Shown: positions 6,001 through 12,000, numbered from the stretch's first letter. The stretch is DNA of 64,000 nucleotides from Candidatus Omnitrophota bacterium (GCA_043803685.1 JAZDJU010000079.1:1-64000), one strand, 5' to 3'. Made by a program: the numbers.

Positions 6001-9000
6001 CCTTTCGGTGCTGACGGATGGTAAAAGCGCTGAAACGGTTGCGAAAGAAATCCGGGATATGTTAAGGTCGAAAGCATGAAGACGATCAAGGTTCAAAGTT
6101 CCAAAGGGAATTACGAGATCCGTATAGGGCGGGGGCTTTTGGCCCAGGCCGGGGCCCATCTTGCCCGGGTTTTCAAGCCAGGAACAAAGCTCATGATCGT
6201 CTCCCAGAAGAATCTCACGCCTTATGTGAAGATCGTGGCCGCGTCACTTTCCCGGAAAGGTTTCAAGGTCCATGTTCACATGCTCCCCGATGGAGAGGTC
6301 GCGAAATCGGGAACGGAGCTCTTCCGGCTTTCGTACGCGCTTTTGGCCCAGGGATTCGAACGCCGGGATGGGATCGTCGCGGTAGGCGGCGGCGTGGTTG
6401 GCGACCTTTCGGGATTCGCGGCGTCGGTCTATTTGCGCGGGATCCGCTACGTGAACATCGCGACAACGCTTCTGGCGCAGGTGGACAGCGCGATCGGAGG
6501 AAAGACCGCGATCGATCTTAAGGCGGGAAAAAACCTCATGGGATCTTTTTGGCCGCCGGCGCTTGTGATCTCGGACGTGAGCGTGCTCCGTTCGCTTCCG
6601 CAACGGGAGCTTTGCGCTTCGCTTGGAGAGGTCGTGAAGTACGGCGTGATCCGCGATCCCGCTCTTTTCAGTTTTCTGGAAAAGAATTACAGGAAAATCT
6701 TGCGTAAGGATCTTGGGGCGATCGAGAAGATCGTGCTTGCGTGCGCCAGGATCAAGGCGGGTGTCGTGACCCGCGACGAGTTCGAAACGAAAGGGGAGCG
6801 CGCGATCCTCAACTACGGCCACACGTTCGCGCACGGGATCGAAGGAGCGCTCACTTATCAGGGGTTGGTGCACGGCGAAGCAGTCGCGATCGGGATGATG
6901 ATGGCGGCACAGCTTGCCGCGGACCTCGGGCTTTGTCCGGAAGATCTTCCGTGGCGTCAGATGAGGCTTCTCGTATCCATGAAGCTTCCTGTCTCGATCA
7001 AGAAATTTAATTTGAAGGCTTCCGCGATCCTGAAGGTCATGATGACGGACAAAAAGAAGAGCCACGGAACGTTGCGTTTTATCCTCCCTCGGAAGATCGG
7101 CAAAGTCACCGTTGAGAAAAATATCCCCGTCGAAAGTCTCACCAAGATCCTCCGCCTCGCCGGCGCCAAATAGCCTGCGAGGGAATTCCCTTATTTTAAA
7201 CAACAGGACTGTGGCGCTTGAGAGTTGCCGAAAATATAAATAACAATTGATATTAAATCAATTCTAAGTTATGCTTCTTCCATGAAAAAGCAAAGCTGTC
7301 TCATCCCCCACGAGAAGATATTCAGGACCATCTTGTTTCTTCGCGGGCAAAAGATCATGCTGGATGCCGACCTGGCAGAACTCTATGGGGTTTCGACCAA
7401 GAGGCTGAATGAACAGGTGCGAAGAAATGCGAGCCGTTTCCCCATAGATTTCATGTCCCGGCTGACCGTGGAAGAGAAAAAGGAGGTGGTCGCAAATTGC
7501 GACCACCTCAAACAGCTTAAATTCTCGCCTTCGCTTCCGAATGCATTTACGGAGTATGGCGCGATCATGCTCGCAACCGTGCTGAATACCCGGTTGGCGG
7601 TCCGGATGAGTCTTCAGGTTGTCCGGGCTTTTGTGAGGTTGCGGGAGATCCTCGCGACACATAAGAGCCTGGCCCGGAAGATCGAAGAAATGGAAATGCA
7701 ATATGATGCGAACTTTCGGGTTCTTTTTAACGCAGTTCGCAGACTCTCCCATCCTCCGGTACGCAAGAAGCAGATGATAGGATTTCATTTATGACGTCAT
7801 GCGAGAAGAAAGAGGTTTCGGCGTTTTTGAGGCTAGGGCGTCTTGGGATCGAGGGGCGACGCAGGGTCCTGGCATTTCTCTCCGAAGGAAGAACAGCTTC
7901 GGAGATCGTAGAGCGGATGGATTCTCAGGATCTTCTGGGAGATCTTCCGGTCTCGTCGAATCTACCGCCTTTTGATCCGGAGCGTGAGATCGAACTTTGT
8001 TCTCAAAAGGGGATCGATCTTCTGCTTTATTCCGACCCGGATTATCCGGCTATTCTTAAAGAGATCGCAGACCCGCCGCTTCTCCTTTATAAAAATGGAA
8101 CCCTCATCGAGGAAGACAGGAATGCCATTGCCATTGTGGGGACGCGGCATCCGAGTTTTTACGGACGGACGCAGGCCAAAAAATTTTCCCAGGCATTGGC
8201 CGCACGGGGGCTCACGATCGTGTCCGGGTTGGCGCGAGGGATCGACCAGGTGGCGCATGACGGCGCGCTTTGTGTCCCTTACGGTCGCACGCTCGCGGTG
8301 ATGGGATGCGGGCTCGATGTCGTTTATCCCAAAGAACACGAGAGTCTTTTTAAAAGGATCTCCGAACGGGGCGCGGTTCTTAGCGAATATTCCCTGGGGA
8401 CGCCGCCGCTTCCGGAGAATTTCCCGCGCCGGAACAGGATCCTCTCAGGACTTTCGTATGCCACGTTCGTGGTCGAGGCCCACTCGCGAAGCGGGTCTCT
8501 CATTACCGCGCATCAAGCGGTGGAGCAAGGTCGCGAGGTTTTTGCTCTTCCGGGATCCGTAGATCAACTGACCTCTCATGGTACGCATCAGCTTATTAAA
8601 GAAGGCGCTTTTTTAGTGGAGACTCCCGAGGACATCGTTCTAGCTCTGGCGGACCGCTTGAAATGGGAGAATCATTTTCAGAGGGTGGGCGTTGGACAAA
8701 CGATCTCTTCGGAGCCTCAGGTCGATAGTTCGTCGTTTCCCGCCAAGGTCGAGGGGCAAGCGCCTCTGTGTGACAAAAAGGGGTCTGACCCCTTTATCTT
8801 GGGAGGGGGAAAAAGTGAAATCGAAGAACTCCTGAAAGAAGAGGGGCCGCTTGCTCAGGATGAGATCCTAGAATTTACCGGGCTGGAGCCCTCGGTATTG
8901 CCGGCACGTCTTCTTAATCTCGAGTTGAGCGGGAAGATCAAAAGAAACTCGGACGGAAAATATTCGCTTAAATAGCGCAAAGCACAAAGCTCAAGGCGCA

Positions 9001-12000
9001 AAGTGGAAAAAAGCATGCAAGAACTCAAGAAGCCAATGAAAAGCTTCAGAGACCTTATGATTTGGCAAAGAAGCGTTCTACTTGCGGAACTGATTTATCA
9101 GAAAACGGAATGTTTTCCCAAGGCCGAACGTTACGGTCTTGTTTCTCAAATGCGAAGAGCGGCCGTTTCAATTCCGTCGAATATTGCTGAAGGTTATCGG
9201 CGTAGACACGCCAAAGAATTTCAGCAATTTCTCAATATAGCCCTTGGTTCTATCGGGGAATTGGAAACGCAGGTTGTTTTGGCGACCAGGTTTCACTACT
9301 TGTCGTTAGAGGATCAAGGCGGACTTTCGGGAGAACTGGATAGCCTTGTAAGGACGGTTGTCAGTTTAAGCAAGAAGATACAGCGTTAAACTTTGCGCCT
9401 TGAGCTTTGCCCCTTGCGCCCGTTTTCATGGGTTAAGCTTCCGCAGGGAGAGGCCGTTATTAGATTGGTCGACATGGGAAAAAGGTTTTGACAGACAGGT
9501 GTTTCCTCTATAGAGTTTTGTCTGAAAACCATGTCTTGTTAAGAGGAGCTTTTTTAAACGAAAGGAGTCAAAGATGGATGGATTGGTGCCGGCAAGTAAG
9601 GGGAAAAGGTTTGCGGCGGGGTTGATCGATTTGGTCATTATTCCCATCGTGTTAGGGATCGTGATCGGCTTGTTGCTCTTAGCGGCTCCGGACATGGTGC
9701 GAAGCATCGTGCTGGTGGTCGTCAATGTCATTTGGTTGATGTTCCGCGACGCTGTTTTTTCTCCGGGTCGGGCGATGGTCAAGGTCAAGATCGTGAGCCT
9801 CACGGGGGAAAAAGTGACCTGGTTGCAGGCGTTGATCCGGAATATTCTTTTGATCATTCCGTTCGTGCTCGTGGTGGGATATATCCTTGAGGTTGTAATG
9901 CTGATCGTCAAGGGACACCGTCTTGCGGACAATTGGGCCAAGACGCAGGTCGTTGAAATTTAAGACCGGGCTTATCAAAACCAGGTTTGAGTCAGTTTTC
10001 ACAATTCTCCTCCGTGGGTGACCGCGGAGGAGAATTTTTGTTTTAAGGAGGTTCAAGTCATGAACGGTGTTCCGACGATCATGAACATGCTGGCATTCTC
10101 ATGGGCAAGAAGCCGGGCGGTACTCTTCCCATTCCGCTTCAAATTCTGGCTCCGTGTGCTGATCGTGGTCTGGCTCGCGGGTGTTGGGATCCACGGATGT
10201 AGCATGAATTTTCAAGCCCCGGCACGATCCTCCAAGGCTGAGTCCGTATCCGTAAAAACCGTTACGGCGCAGTCATCGGCGACCTCCTCCACTAAGATCT
10301 CTCCCTTGGCGGGCACTCCGGGCTCTTTTTCAGGATCGGTTCCCGCGTTCCAACAAGAAGATGCGAAGAATGGGTTGTCCGGTCCAAATTCAAAGTTTAT
10401 CGAAAATCTCAGAACGGGTGCCAAACGCTGGGGCGTTTGGATCGTGGCAGGGCTTGGGGTGTTCGGACTTGTTCTTGGAGTTTTGTTTGCCTGGTTATCG
10501 TGCCGTTTTAATTTCGTGCTTCTGGAGGTGATCCTGACGCGAGAACCCACGATCAAAGAAGCGTTTCAAAGACACAAAGAAGCAGGAAATTCCTATTTTG
10601 TGTGGACCCTGACTTTTCTGGGGATCTGCCTTGCGGCTTTCTTGTTGCCGGGGCTGATCATCGTGCTTTCTTTTGGGATCGCGAAATGGAGCTCCGTCCT
10701 GGGGATCCCTCTCATGGTCCTTGGAGGTCTCTCGATCCTGGCAGTGATCGTTGCGATGATCTTTGTCGGCGCCGTGATGCGCGACTTTGCGCTTCCGATC
10801 ATGTATTCCGAAGGGATCCCGGCCATAAGCGCTTTAAACAAGTTCCTGGACTCTCCCGAATTCACTTTTGGAAAGGTCTTTCAGTATCTTCTCGTGACCT
10901 TCGGTTTATGGATCCTTCTTGCGATACTCCAGACCGTGGTCGGTGTGATTGTGGCGATTGGCGGATTGATCGCGGGAGGTCTTGCGGCTCTTCCTGGCTT
11001 TATTCTGATACAGGTTTTCCCGTTCCTAACACTTCCGCTGATTGTGTTGGGGAGTCTGGTTGCTTCAGTCCTCATTCTGGCTGTTATCGTGATGATCGGT
11101 ATGGTCATGTTACCGGCGGTGATCTTCCTCCGGGCGTTCGCGCTTGCCTATTTGACACGTCTCTATCCCGAATGCGACCTGCTATTGCTTTCGGAGAAGA
11201 GTGCTTGAAAAACCCCGGCAAAGACTTTCTTCTTCGAGATTGTTCCCTCCGGGTCGTCGAATCTGTGTTAGCCTTCTATCAAAGGGAAGAATGCTATGTC
11301 TAAAAAGAAACGTTTTGGAAAAAAACGATCCGTTAAGAAGGATGTAGGGGTTTTGGGAGAGGTGCTTTCTCTCTACGCGAAGCTTGCGGATCTTAAAAAG
11401 GACATGGCTAAGGCGACGGAGGGAGGGGAGAAGGCGGAGGATCGCCTGACGAGCCTCGAGATCCATATGAATATCCTGGCCCGGCTACTGACTACGCTTT
11501 GCATCGAAAAGCTCGGGATCCGTCTCACGGCTCTCAAGCGCCTAGTGCGCCGCGTAGAAAAAGAGGCGGTCCGTGACTCCCAGATCATGGAACTCGAGTC
11601 TCTTTACAAGCTCTCCCATGAAGGTCCCAAGAAGACCCCGCCTGCTAGTATCAAACCCAAGGACGATCCTTGGGAGCAGATCTCATAGACGACGAAGGTC
11701 CTGAAAAGGCTCCTAAGAGATATAAGTACTTTCTTCTGGATGGAACTTGGGTTCGATTTGCAACAAAACAGGTCACTTCATCATTTTCTATAACGCGTTT
11801 CCTGCAAACAGGTTGTAAGCGTCCGATAAACTTGACGTTTACAATCAGTTCCATATTGTTTAAAATCCCCTTCCTTGAAAGCGCGTGATAAGGCGTAGGT
11901 GGTAAGGCTTAAGTTATAGCCATCAAGCGTCTTATCCTCTTTTGTTTACGGCTGATCACTTATCACTTACTGAGGAGTTTTTGTGGCGAAAGCAAAAAAG

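Follow-up and report, generated by a model that had tools for sequence, protein, structure and literature searches.

A probable heptamer-armed cassette around a four-helix-bundle (IVP) gene at the 3′ end of dprA in a Candidatus Omnitrophota bacterium

In the 64,000-nt stretch of DNA analysed here (the window; Candidatus Omnitrophota bacterium, GCA_043803685.1, JAZDJU010000079.1:1-64000), a gene of the 23S rRNA intervening-sequence protein family (IVP) lies between dprA and an RDD-family gene, closely bracketed by an inverted repeat. The features of the locus are:

7791..8975, + strand: dprA (PF02481, 251.6 bits, and PF17782); its last residue and stop codon TAG (8973-8975) are insert-derived
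8973..9431, + strand: inserted cassette of ~459 bp, extent approximate, placed by comparison with empty dprA/RDD sites of same-genus relatives
8975..9004, + strand: 5′ arm of the inverted repeat, about four NN(N)CAAAG units: GCGCAAAG CACAAAG CTCAAG GCGCAAAG T
9036..9389, + strand: IVP gene, four-helix-bundle protein of 117 aa, start ATG 9036 (PF05635, TIGR02436)
9390..9419, + strand: 3′ arm, CTTTGNN units, complement of the 5′ arm and paired with it in the MFE and centroid folds
9432..9436, + strand: remnant of the former dprA terminus (..GT TAA, with the earlier stop TAA at 9434-9436), from the empty-site comparison, followed by sequence common to the empty sites
9488..9516, + strand: promoter-like site of the RDD gene, TTGACA-17-TAGAGT, 3′ of the cassette, from a promoter scan
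9574..9963, + strand: RDD-family membrane protein gene (PF06271, 46.2 bits), the conserved downstream neighbour

The cassette has the same orientation as its neighbours, and consists of the new stop codon, the 5′ arm, the IVP gene, the 3′ arm and a 12-nt tail, after which the sequence shared with relatives picks up at GTTAAGCTTC. Its parts are tightly packed: the 5′ arm shares 1 nt with the dprA stop codon (the last base of TAG 8973-8975), and the IVP stop codon (TAA 9387-9389) is followed without a gap by the 3′ arm. The promoter-like site is the only one within 8700-9650, and the same scan of this interval found no terminator-like site; no Rfam match was found in 8800-9650. The TTGACA...TATAGAG stretch of this promoter-like site is kept in empty sites too, and the RDD gene follows dprA in 28 of 29 relatives' loci.

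By its sequence, the IVP gene is a clear member of PF05635 (120.1 bits, cut-off 33.8; profile positions 1-103 of 106) and TIGR02436 (116.5 bits, cut-off 24), and its protein matches PDB entry 2gsc_A with an E value of 6.4e-27. With the start at 9036, the N-terminus aligns with the other four copies in the genome at M-K-S-F-R-D-L. In-frame alternatives are ATG 9015 and GTG 9003 (the PF05635 match opens at residue 16 of the 9003 ORF), and the annotated start at 9057 would truncate the domain. Values of dN/dS between 0.06 and 0.31, from the 4 of 9 orthologue pairs with estimable dS, indicate that the gene evolves under purifying selection. Its protein, the only product that the cassette encodes, lacks any known catalytic motif.

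The arms are each 30 nt long, 90% complementary and 385 nt apart, and they contain the exact 20-mer quoted for this gene (as g01605) in an earlier note on this DNA. Folding of 8965-9430 as RNA gave a long stem in both MFE and centroid structures (z −5.04; 0 of 100 shuffles as good). That note had counted five PF05635 genes in the genome, and our profile search recovered exactly the same five matches. For each copy, inverted repeats were scored without gaps (match +1, mismatch −2) between the 160 nt before the HMM match and the 100 nt from the stop codon, giving 21 for the window's copy (contig C79), 15 for C100, 14 for C129 and 12 for both C103 and C47. When the same geometry was placed at random in this genome 1500 times, scores averaged 7.05 and never exceeded 12, and the share reaching the observed scores was 0 to 0.0013 across the five copies. 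The proposal that four of the five copies are bracketed by repeats is correct for those four but too narrow, since all five are; the C100 copy (g01980), thought to have no repeat, has arms at C100:14166-14186 and 14745-14765, the first of which falls within its annotated N-terminal extension. The 3′ arm does lie near the stop codon, although the distance of 'within about 13 nt' is corrected to 0-3 nt from the first base of the stop in all five copies. Absent from the earlier note is the internal structure of the arms, which are arrays of ~7-nt units in four copies and of 8-nt units in C47. The best 35-nt self-match at lag 7 was 0.68-0.86 in the four copies, with 0.75 for the 5′ arm at 8975-9004 (null 99th percentile 0.64), and C47 gave 0.81 at lag 8 (null maximum 0.67). 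The inverted-repeat observation is therefore confirmed, and is stronger than first claimed.

This build is found far beyond the genome. An inverted-repeat score of at least 10 was reached by 66 of 80 homologues from many phyla compared with 10 of 301 shifted within-locus controls, and a score of at least 12 by 55 of 80 compared with 1 of 301. The IVS-type architecture first proposed, an ORF looped out by a terminal stem, is thus borne out by a stem in 5/5 copies and 66/80 homologues. Where the periodicity of a homologue's arms was clear it was 7 (15 cases) or 8 (14 cases) and no other. Context and arm mismatches were counted over 84 cassettes scoring at least 12. The upstream neighbour was co-stranded in 74 of 78 determinable cassettes, the downstream neighbour likewise, and in 74 of 74 cases the upstream open frame ended between −54 and +34 nt relative to the start of the arm. 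Stems most often comprised 5 units (25 of 67 cassettes; mean 4.5). Mismatches between the arms cluster at the variable phases of the units (32.5% vs 9.7%), and in the sense RNA they comprised 92 G.U, 97 A.C and 236 of other kinds, with no G.U bias. As selection on one RNA strand should make G.U commoner than A.C, arm complementarity may be maintained at the DNA level or through recent copying. Units agreed (distance ≤1) in 25 of 32 pairs at ≥70% protein identity and in 29 of 193 pairs at 55-70%; this fast decay of the unit with protein divergence fits co-inheritance as well as recognition. The IVP cassette is a widespread, fast-moving kind of unit, built like rRNA intervening sequences, and in the literature searched we found no description of a repeat-armed IVP cassette between protein genes.

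Empty dprA/RDD sites are known in same-genus relatives at seven loci (L007, L008, L012, L013, L015, L016 and L023), with gaps of 136-157 nt. In these, dprA ends in ..DGRY[AS]LxC* with TGTTAA, compared with ..GKYSLx* and TAG at filled sites; the empty sites join TGTTAA to GCTTCGG, and all filled sites in the genus join ..TTT(T)C... to GTTAAGCTTC. Because the old dprA stop remains 3′ of the cassette and relatives have empty sites, this comparison shows that a ~459-bp unit inserted one or two codons before the old stop and supplied a new one. Neither the dprA nor the argS junction shows a target-site duplication; a few target bases have been replaced there instead, and profile searches found no transposase domain in the cassette. 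It therefore shares inverted arms with classical IS elements and MITEs, but neither of these other two features. At three further dprA sites (L009, L014 and L019), arm remnants of several classes are stacked, in keeping with nesting.

In agreement, three junctions in the genus carry different cassettes, gene-less arrays or nothing between conserved flanks. At the HK/REC junction (HK 79-95% identical), a CAGAC-armed IVP cassette is present in three genomes and a different IVP in one; six have arrays of other classes, or remnants of such arrays, without a gene, and five have no array. At argS/miaA (argS 87-98% identical), six genomes have an overlapping ATGTGA junction, two an 8-mer IVP cassette and two a TAGGGTT hairpin, with other elements elsewhere. 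Across 20 congeners, IVP copy number ranges from 0 to 7. These comparisons show a rapid turnover of IVP units at gene junctions, by gain, replacement and loss, and uphold the earlier suggestion of mobility between unrelated genes, given the old dprA end 3′ of the cassette and the HK/REC and argS/miaA sites that are empty or otherwise filled in relatives.

Periodic arrays also occur without a gene, a point likewise absent from the earlier note. This genome has 114 arrays at lag 7, compared with 0, 5, 20, 8 and 8 at lags 5, 6, 8, 9 and 10, and gene-less arrays far outnumber gene-bearing ones (131-177 arrays vs 5 cassettes). The gene-less relatives of the cassette are arrays and hairpins of the same unit classes. 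Among the 20 congeners, whose kinship means that class-matching tests overstate significance, the two whose IVP is CCACG-armed had 192 and 151 matches to CCACG arrays and the others ≤63; TAGGG arrays gave 54, 45 and 17 in three genomes predicted in advance and ≤11 elsewhere, the excess in the last of these (G004) being largely due to its own cassette (6 of 17 matches); and AGAC arrays gave 33-207 with a matching IVP vs 0-84 without. The upper end of that last range comes from G016 and G017, with 84 and 72 AGAC matches and no AGAC-armed IVP among the loci examined. The only congener without an IVP (G013, 97% complete) had 0 matches in all three classes. For the 29 GGATGGC arrays of this genome, the 91%-complete assembly contains no matching IVP.

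Together, we read 8973-9431, with some confidence, as a heptamer-armed IVP cassette: a self-contained ~0.45-kb unit with four siblings and more than 100 gene-less relatives in this genome. In it, a 5′ arm with four or five units of ~7 nt precedes a gene encoding a four-helix bundle of the pentamer type, whose stop codon is directly followed by the complementary 3′ arm. The closest known parallel is the 23S IVS of Coxiella, Leptospira and others, with the same protein family, a looped-out ORF, 5′ heptamers and a similar size (~0.43-0.46 kb). In the sections of PMC4990558 drawn on here, the Coxiella burnetii helix-45 IVS is described with an ORF, S23p (PF05635), looped out by a terminal stem of ~28-30 bp, and with tandem heptamers in its 5′ region (GACAGAT, three times); RNase III was shown experimentally to cut mid-stem, at the first heptamer. 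Here, the corresponding parts are the 30-nt arms and about four NNCAAAG units. Unlike the 23S IVS, our cassette lies not within a helix of a 23S or 16S rRNA gene but between protein-coding genes, at the dprA 3′ end (23S rRNA is absent from this genome's assembly), and it has siblings of different unit classes besides the gene-less arrays. The Coxiella element is called selfish and of unknown origin by its authors, and its ORF is reported in the same sections as decaying and probably untranslated, unlike the ORF here, which is under purifying selection.

RAYTs are REP-associated tyrosine transposases flanked by their own REP hairpins (REPINs). The IVP cassette resembles them in being a small gene bracketed by inverted repeats, with the same repeat class scattered gene-less between genes as hairpins. 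Repeat class and abundance also vary among close relatives and tend to follow the resident gene, albeit in kin genomes and with exceptions. It differs in encoding a four-helix bundle without an HUH/Y1 motif, and in having periodic 7-8-nt arrays instead of single palindromes. Furthermore, Y1_Tnp copy number did not track array load among the 20 congeners (rho 0.27, p 0.24).

For the RNA, we propose a scheme by analogy with the Coxiella IVS that we consider evenly balanced between right and wrong. The cassette would be co-transcribed with dprA, its arms would pair as a stem of roughly 30 bp, and RNase III, which this genome encodes (89.8 bits), would cleave that stem as in Coxiella; because of this cut, the insert would be tolerated inside the transcription unit and the IVP mRNA released. 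A look-up of RNA runs listed none containing the locus. More tentatively, IVP might be the element's own factor, promoting the spread or upkeep of arrays of its class in the manner of RAYT genes and REPINs. For this it might bind the periodic stem built from its own class of units, much as a stem-loop in DGR RNA is bound by pentamers of Avd. Avd of diversity-generating systems (bAvd) is a distant homologue with a pentameric four-helix-bundle barrel (bioRxiv 10.1101/2023.10.23.563531; PMC10053308), and the portions of the former used here describe an 11-bp stem-loop held by all five protomers of the pentamer, which sets a precedent for the binding of a stem.

Rather unlikely, though the strongest alternative to such a self-spreading cassette, is that heptamer-array hairpins move through a host enzyme, that of another element or recombination between arrays, and that IVP is just cargo often carried in the loop, such as a gene for addiction, defence or RNA binding. 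The excess of gene-less arrays, the array classes without an IVP partner in this genome and the absence of a catalytic motif from IVP all favour this, as does the presence of other genes at the same hot spots: L019 and L014 have a GIY-YIG ORF (55.3 bits) surrounded by arm remnants, and in L021 the dprA site is filled by an ORF for a Y1 transposase (34.9 bits). However, the GIY-YIG and Y1 genes have their own, different terminal repeats. Array load tracks IVP copy number (rho 0.62, p 0.0035; 20 congeners) and not that of Y1_Tnp: G006 and G015 have arrays without a Y1 match, and the array-poor G012 and G018 have 4 and 3. A DGR-type RT was present in only 4 of the 20 congeners and was not found, with the query used, in the array-rich G010, G007, G017 and G016. 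Array class, moreover, tends to follow the arm class of IVP, and in homologues across many phyla the armed cargo is of the PF05635 family (66 of 80 cases).

Intergenic heptamer arrays of a similar description are known elsewhere. PMC4692102 reports GGGAATC arrays in Xanthomonas (70-75 convergent pairs) and GGGGA(C/T)T arrays in Nostoc, and PMC4679880 reports TAACTGA repeats in bacteria; all share 7-nt units, often convergent pairs, species specificity and no assigned function. A term search of both papers gave no mention of S23, 23S or four-helix-bundle genes.

It is improbable that IVP is instead a vertically inherited resident gene whose stem only stabilises, terminates or controls translation of its mRNA, with neither cassette nor mobility. 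The strong stem and the purifying selection would suit such a gene, and since all filled dprA sites have the same 3′ junction, this site could be accounted for by one old event. That account is contradicted by the dprA stop retained 3′ of the insert and by the three junctions that are empty or differently filled between conserved flanks; the variation in copy number, the nested arm remnants, the same build in many phyla and the lack of a terminator-like site in the scan also argue against it.

Still less probable, and contradicted by a sub-cut-off score and the lack of RT, TR or VR near the locus, is that IVP is the DGR accessory gene Avd and the repeats DGR machinery. In favour are the kinship of the family with Avd (PF22296, 18.1 bits; NF033474, 26.9 bits) and a DGR on C24 of this genome, whose TR and RT have a heptamer hairpin between them. 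However, the NF033474 score is far under the cut-off of 80, the only RT match in the genome is that on C24, and the DGR there includes a separate Avd-like ORF (C24:438-785, assigned by eye). Of the phylum's 26 DGR-RT loci, only 3 have periodic arrays 5′ of the RT, all three in this array-rich genus. Finally, repetitive arms raise the odds of self-complementary matches and the C129 arms are A+T-rich, but a chance or low-complexity artefact, of negligible probability, is ruled out by the random placements (0 to 0.13% reach the observed scores), the within-locus controls and the fixed position of the arms relative to the stop codon in all five copies.

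The cassette in the window consists of an IVP gene (a four-helix-bundle '23S rRNA IVS protein', PF05635/TIGR02436) set between two complementary arms at the junction of dprA and an RDD gene.

Features of the dprA–RDD region of the window
7282–7794, ORF6N-domain gene (PF10543, 93.8 bits), abutting the dprA start
8975–9004, 5′ arm of the inverted repeat (30 nt, 90% complementary to the 3′ arm)
Between the arms, IVP ORF (PF05635, 120.1 bits, cut-off 33.8; TIGR02436, 116.5 bits, cut-off 24)
9390–9419, 3′ arm of the inverted repeat
9488–9516, promoter-like site downstream of the cassette, the only one in 8700–9650

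The arms contain the exact 20-mer reported in the earlier note. The first base of the 5′ arm is also the final one of the dprA stop codon, and the 3′ arm starts at the base right after the IVP stop codon. When 8965–9430 was folded as RNA, the long stem was kept in both the minimum-energy and the centroid structure (z-score −5.04; 0 of 100 shuffles equally stable). ATG 9036 is the likely IVP start codon, since the N-terminus then aligns with the other four copies in the genome, and the annotated start at 9057 would truncate the PF05635 domain. The nearest solved structure is XCC0516 (PDB 2gsc, E 6.4e-27). Judged by codon substitution between orthologous cassettes, the IVP gene is under selection and functional: dN/dS was 0.06–0.31 in the 4 of 9 pairs with estimable dS, and in the other five dS was saturated, with pN 0.07–0.30.

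To place the cassette, the dprA locus was retrieved from 29 relatives, in 28 of which the RDD gene is next after dprA. Seven same-genus loci are empty sites, with a dprA–RDD gap of 136–157 nt without insert, and there dprA has the terminus ..DGRY[AS]LxC before its stop codon (TGTTAA, followed by GCTTCGG). In the window, dprA ends ..GKYSLK and its TAG stop is supplied by the insert. Twelve bases after the 3′ arm the shared sequence restarts with GTTAAGCTTCC, and therefore the original dprA stop codon survives at 9434–9436; the insert extends over about 8973–9431. The promoter-like site is kept in the empty sites and is therefore that of the RDD gene, and a promoter/terminator scan of the dprA–RDD region found no terminator-like site. 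On these grounds, the IVP gene is most likely transcribed together with dprA. Homologues of the ORF6N gene (36–89% identical) were found to precede dprA in six of the 29 loci (L009, L012, L014, L016, L019 and L025), so the gene looks accessory.

The source genome (133 contigs, 91% complete) gave five PF05635 profile hits, the same number as the earlier note, which had taken four of them to be closely bracketed by repeats. For each copy, the 160 nt preceding the HMM match were compared with the 100 nt that begin at the stop codon, and ungapped inverted repeats between the two were scored. The five copies scored 21, 15, 14, 12 and 12, whereas 1500 random placements of the same geometry averaged 7.05 and never exceeded 12. 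Therefore, the bracketing is real and applies to all five; the C100 copy, said to have no repeat, carries its 5′ arm within the annotated N-terminal extension. These scores were adopted because RNAduplex energies over the wide 160/100-nt flanks failed to distinguish true copies from random placements (null mean −53). The 3′ arm of every copy begins 0–3 nt from where the stop codon starts. The arms are short arrays of 7-nt units (8 nt in the C47 copy), built from a conserved core of ∼5 nt and 2–3 variable positions.

Repeat units of the five cassettes
C79 (window) copy, NNCAAAG
C100 copy, CCACGNN
C103 copy, CAGACNN
C129 copy, ATTTCAA / ATTTGAA
C47 copy, GTATCAAA

Lag-7 self-match of the 7-nt arms was 0.68–0.86 (null 99th percentile 0.64), and lag-8 self-match of the C47 arm was 0.81 (null maximum 0.67).

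This build is shared across the protein family. With the window protein as query we collected 80 homologue loci from many phyla, including Patescibacteria, Bacteroidota, Acidobacteriota, Planctomycetota, Omnitrophota, Gammaproteobacteria, Nitrospirota, Chloroflexota and Clostridia. Cultivable candidate hosts of armed cassettes among them are Prolixibacter denitrificans (L042), Segetibacter aerophilus (L080), Niastella populi (L087), Hanamia caeni (L065) and Flavobacterium sp. (L106); members of the family were also detected in Bacteroides thetaiotaomicron. Repeat scores were at least 10 in 66 and at least 12 in 55 of these, compared with 10 and 1 of 301 controls with the same geometry shifted 800 or 1100 nt within the loci. 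Clear periods were either 7 (15 loci) or 8 (14 loci), with no other value. Genomes of the genus carry between 0 and 7 IVP copies. A tblastn survey of 69 loci there found a match in 59, with 60 genes in total, of which one running off its locus was dropped; 40 of the 59 cassettes scored at least 10, and several low-scoring ones have arms 215–245 nt upstream, beyond the search window. Stems average 33 bp and 4.5 units, most often 5 units (67 qualifying cassettes of 139), with mismatches at 32.5% of variable phases and 9.7% of core phases.

Among the 84 of 139 cassettes scoring at least 12, the upstream neighbour lay on the same strand as the IVP gene in 74 cases and on the opposite one in 4 (6 undetermined), with identical counts for the downstream neighbour. 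Wherever the upstream neighbour was co-oriented (74 of 74), its open frame ended between −54 and +34 nt relative to the start of the arm. The arms are also polar: AG occurs in the 5′-arm units of 73 of 81 cassettes and CT in those of 11, and 73 of the 81 5′ arms are more than half purine. The idea that a period of 7 or 8 places stops in all three frames holds partially at best; all frames were closed in 34 of 81 5′ arms compared with 8 of 81 reverse complements, and closed frames per arm numbered 1.96 compared with 1.53 in shuffles, and the window arm has one TAG only. The AG/purine bias is the firmer polarity result. Selection specific to the sense RNA was not supported: mismatches in the 84 cassettes comprised 92 of G.U type, 97 A.C and 236 of other kinds. 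As G.U is no commoner than A.C, this is evidence against a stem kept by sense-RNA selection alone, and suggests that complementarity is maintained by a DNA-level process or reflects recent copying. RNase III cutting is still compatible with this result, because the enzyme needs only a duplex.

The dprA–RDD site is a hot spot. Every occupied site in the genus has one common 3′ junction with differing contents.

Occupants of the dprA–RDD site in relatives
L018 (G017), related IVP, 56% identical, with units CAACG / CGTTG for CAAAG / CTTTG
L009 (G016), outer CAAAG heptamers retained, with 8-mer arms and an IVP gene inside
L014 (G006), stacked remnants of several 3′-arm classes
L019 and L014, GIY-YIG ORF (55.3 bits) with its own repeats, within arm remnants
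L021 (G008), Y1 transposase-like ORF (34.9 bits)

All the L018 units differ in this way from those of the window cassette, a concerted change that is compensated across both arms. In L009 one cassette is nested in the remains of another, and its IVP is closest to the 8-mer-armed C47 copy; the first 3′-arm remnant in L014 is nearly identical to the window 3′ arm. The Y1 (IS200-like) ORF (L021:444–1097, minus strand) is flanked by GGTGACAGTCACC palindromes, which also occur singly at this junction in L011, L017 and L020. A reading of these three gene-less loci as collapsed arms is uncertain, since the GGTGACTGTCACC palindrome there resembles that flanking the L021 Y1 gene. The GIY-YIG ORF (L019:668–955, minus strand) has an inverted repeat of its own on either side (TGTCATYCCCG...GGGGATCC). 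Judged by eye, this element recurs within array remnants, or next to them, at the dprA and argS junctions in four congeners (L019, L014, L230 and L246), and appears to be a second type of small hairpin-armed cassette using the same hot spots.

The same picture was obtained at two further junctions. Between the histidine kinase and receiver genes (HK–REC, the C103 copy), the HK fragment is 79–95% identical across the 16 relatives' loci returned. A CAGAC-armed cassette is present in the source genome, G003 (IVP 84% identical) and G002 (75%), and in G001 the IVP is another one, armed with TATAGCT; six genomes have gene-less arrays or remnants of other classes, five are array-free, one has an unrelated 1177-nt insert, and one further locus is truncated. 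A second heptamer array, of GCAAGAG class (C103:50676–50718), lies upstream of the C103 cassette's 5′ arm, with a small hairpin (CACCAAACC..GGTTTGGTG) between the two. G004 has the same array at this junction, and it is probably what is left of a former occupant. At argS–miaA (the C47 copy), argS is 87–98% identical across the 19 loci returned from relatives. In six genomes nothing is inserted and the two genes overlap in ATGTGA, the source genome and G010 have 8-mer IVP cassettes (IVP 85% identical), a gene-less TAGGGTT hairpin in G003 and G017 provides the argS stop codon with its first unit, and others have further repeat elements, the GIY-YIG element or solo arrays. G006 and G009 (L229 and L243) carry a ∼0.45-kb insert here, bracketed by inverted repeats of CCCTCTCCC..GGGAGAGGG type. 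No target-site duplication was seen at the dprA or argS junctions; a few target bases are replaced instead. The earlier proposal that the cassettes lie between unrelated genes and are mobile is supported, and cassette turnover is quicker than the divergence of the flanking genes.

Similar arrays without a gene are abundant. The source genome has 114 lag-7 arrays, compared with 0, 5, 20, 8 and 8 at lags 5, 6, 8, 9 and 10, and a looser criterion gave 177. The dominant classes are CCACG (45), GGATGGC (29), CAGAC (22) and GGGGAAC (15). Strict pairing recovered 16–20 hairpins, fewer than are visible by eye, so we claim no total; arm order was the same in 16 of 16 close gene-less pairs. The window itself has a gene-less heptamer hairpin at 24560–24638 (GGAGGGC / GCCATCC class, arms 24560–24596 and 24604–24638), of a class that numbers 29 arrays genome-wide and lacks an IVP partner in the assembly, and two CCACG-class arrays (15047–15065 and 62989–63007), the class of the C100 arms. 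GGATGGC arrays have no IVP partner within this 91% complete assembly. Three classes were then counted across 20 congeners, which are related genomes.

Array matches in genomes with and without an IVP armed by the same class
CCACG, 192 and 151 with matching armed IVP; at most 63 in other genomes
AGAC, 33–207 with matching armed IVP (six genomes); 0–84 in other genomes
TAGGG, 54, 45 and 17 with matching armed IVP (three genomes, predicted beforehand); at most 11 elsewhere

For AGAC the one-sided Mann–Whitney test, computed over kin genomes, gave p 0.003, with G016 and G017 as exceptions; 6 of the 17 TAGGG matches in G004 lie within its own cassette. G013, the sole IVP-free genome (97% complete), had no match in any of the three classes, and each of its three junctions is empty. 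Across the 20 congeners, again kin, IVP copy number correlated with summed array matches (rho 0.62, p 0.0035). Units had equal period in 32 of 32 pairs of proteins at least 70% identical and were within one base in 25 of these, falling to 29 of 193 pairs at 55–70% identity. Unit sequence therefore co-diverges with the IVP protein but decays fast.

Two other activities were considered as movers of this DNA. Copy number of Y1 (RAYT-like) transposases was not related to array load (rho 0.27, p 0.24; 20 congeners). The source genome also encodes a complete diversity-generating retroelement (DGR) with a heptamer hairpin.

DGR of the source genome (C24:1–2731) and a second VR
C24:271–402, VR
C24:438–785, Avd-like ORF (resemblance by eye)
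C24:1300–1431, TR, 83% identical to the VR
C24 ∼1445–1525, heptamer hairpin between TR and RT
C24:1535–2731, RT
C130:26457–26607, second VR, beside heptamer arrays

Periodic arrays are not a general DGR feature, being upstream of the RT in 3 of 26 DGR-RT loci of the phylum, all of this genus. DGR RTs were found in 4 of the 20 congeners and did not track array load. Both DGR RTs and Y1 transposases are poor candidates.

To our knowledge, PF05635 proteins are common across bacteria and have been assigned no function since their discovery in rRNA intervening sequences in the 1990s, and heptamer repeat arrays are a separate, likewise unexplained feature of many genomes. The window locus and its relatives link the two. 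The same unit of gene plus periodic stem sits in the rRNA of some bacteria and, here, at operon junctions, in the company of gene-less arrays that tend to match the resident gene in class; 23S rRNA is absent from this assembly. The Coxiella burnetii 23S rRNA intervening sequence is described as having three tandem GACAGAT heptamers and a degenerate one before the S23p start codon, and a 28-bp terminal stem cut by RNase III mid-stem at the first heptamer (PMC4990558). Both systems thus have periodic heptamer arms, but the Coxiella ORF is reported there as decaying, whereas the IVP ORF here is functional by dN/dS. Given the Coxiella experiments and an RNase III gene in the genome, we infer that the stem would form in the dprA transcript and then be cut by RNase III. 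A DGR ribonucleoprotein preprint reports that five Avd protomers all grip an 11-bp stem-loop, with flipped-out bases occupying crevices between protomers (bioRxiv 10.1101/2023.10.23.563531). By analogy with Avd, the IVP pentamer may bind the periodic stem of its own cassette.

A broader reading, which we offer tentatively and regard as improbable, is that IVP cassettes and gene-less 7/8-nt hairpin arrays form one undescribed class of mobile element, with the IVP pentamer an element-encoded specificity factor that grips the stem of its own class and recruits a host activity. About one protomer would contact each unit, with mismatched variable positions flipped out as in the Avd–RNA complex, and the recruited activity would copy or move the hairpin to gene junctions beside stop codons. 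If true, a single element class would account for both rRNA intervening sequences and the excess of heptamer repeats that has long been noted in bacteria, and would give the PF05635 family its function. In the literature found, which lay outside subscription journals and supplements, armed IVP cassettes outside rRNA were not described, and the accessible text of two papers on unexplained heptamer repeats makes no mention of S23 or 23S (PMC4692102, PMC4679880).

For annotation, an insert of this kind changes the final codons and the stop codon of the gene before it, and start codons called within arms are wrong. The window also has a tetranucleotide (GCAA)n run at 27527–27567, which is resembled by (CTTG)n runs at C37:36758 and C85:14958 with common flanks (TGAATCCCTG...TTTAGA).
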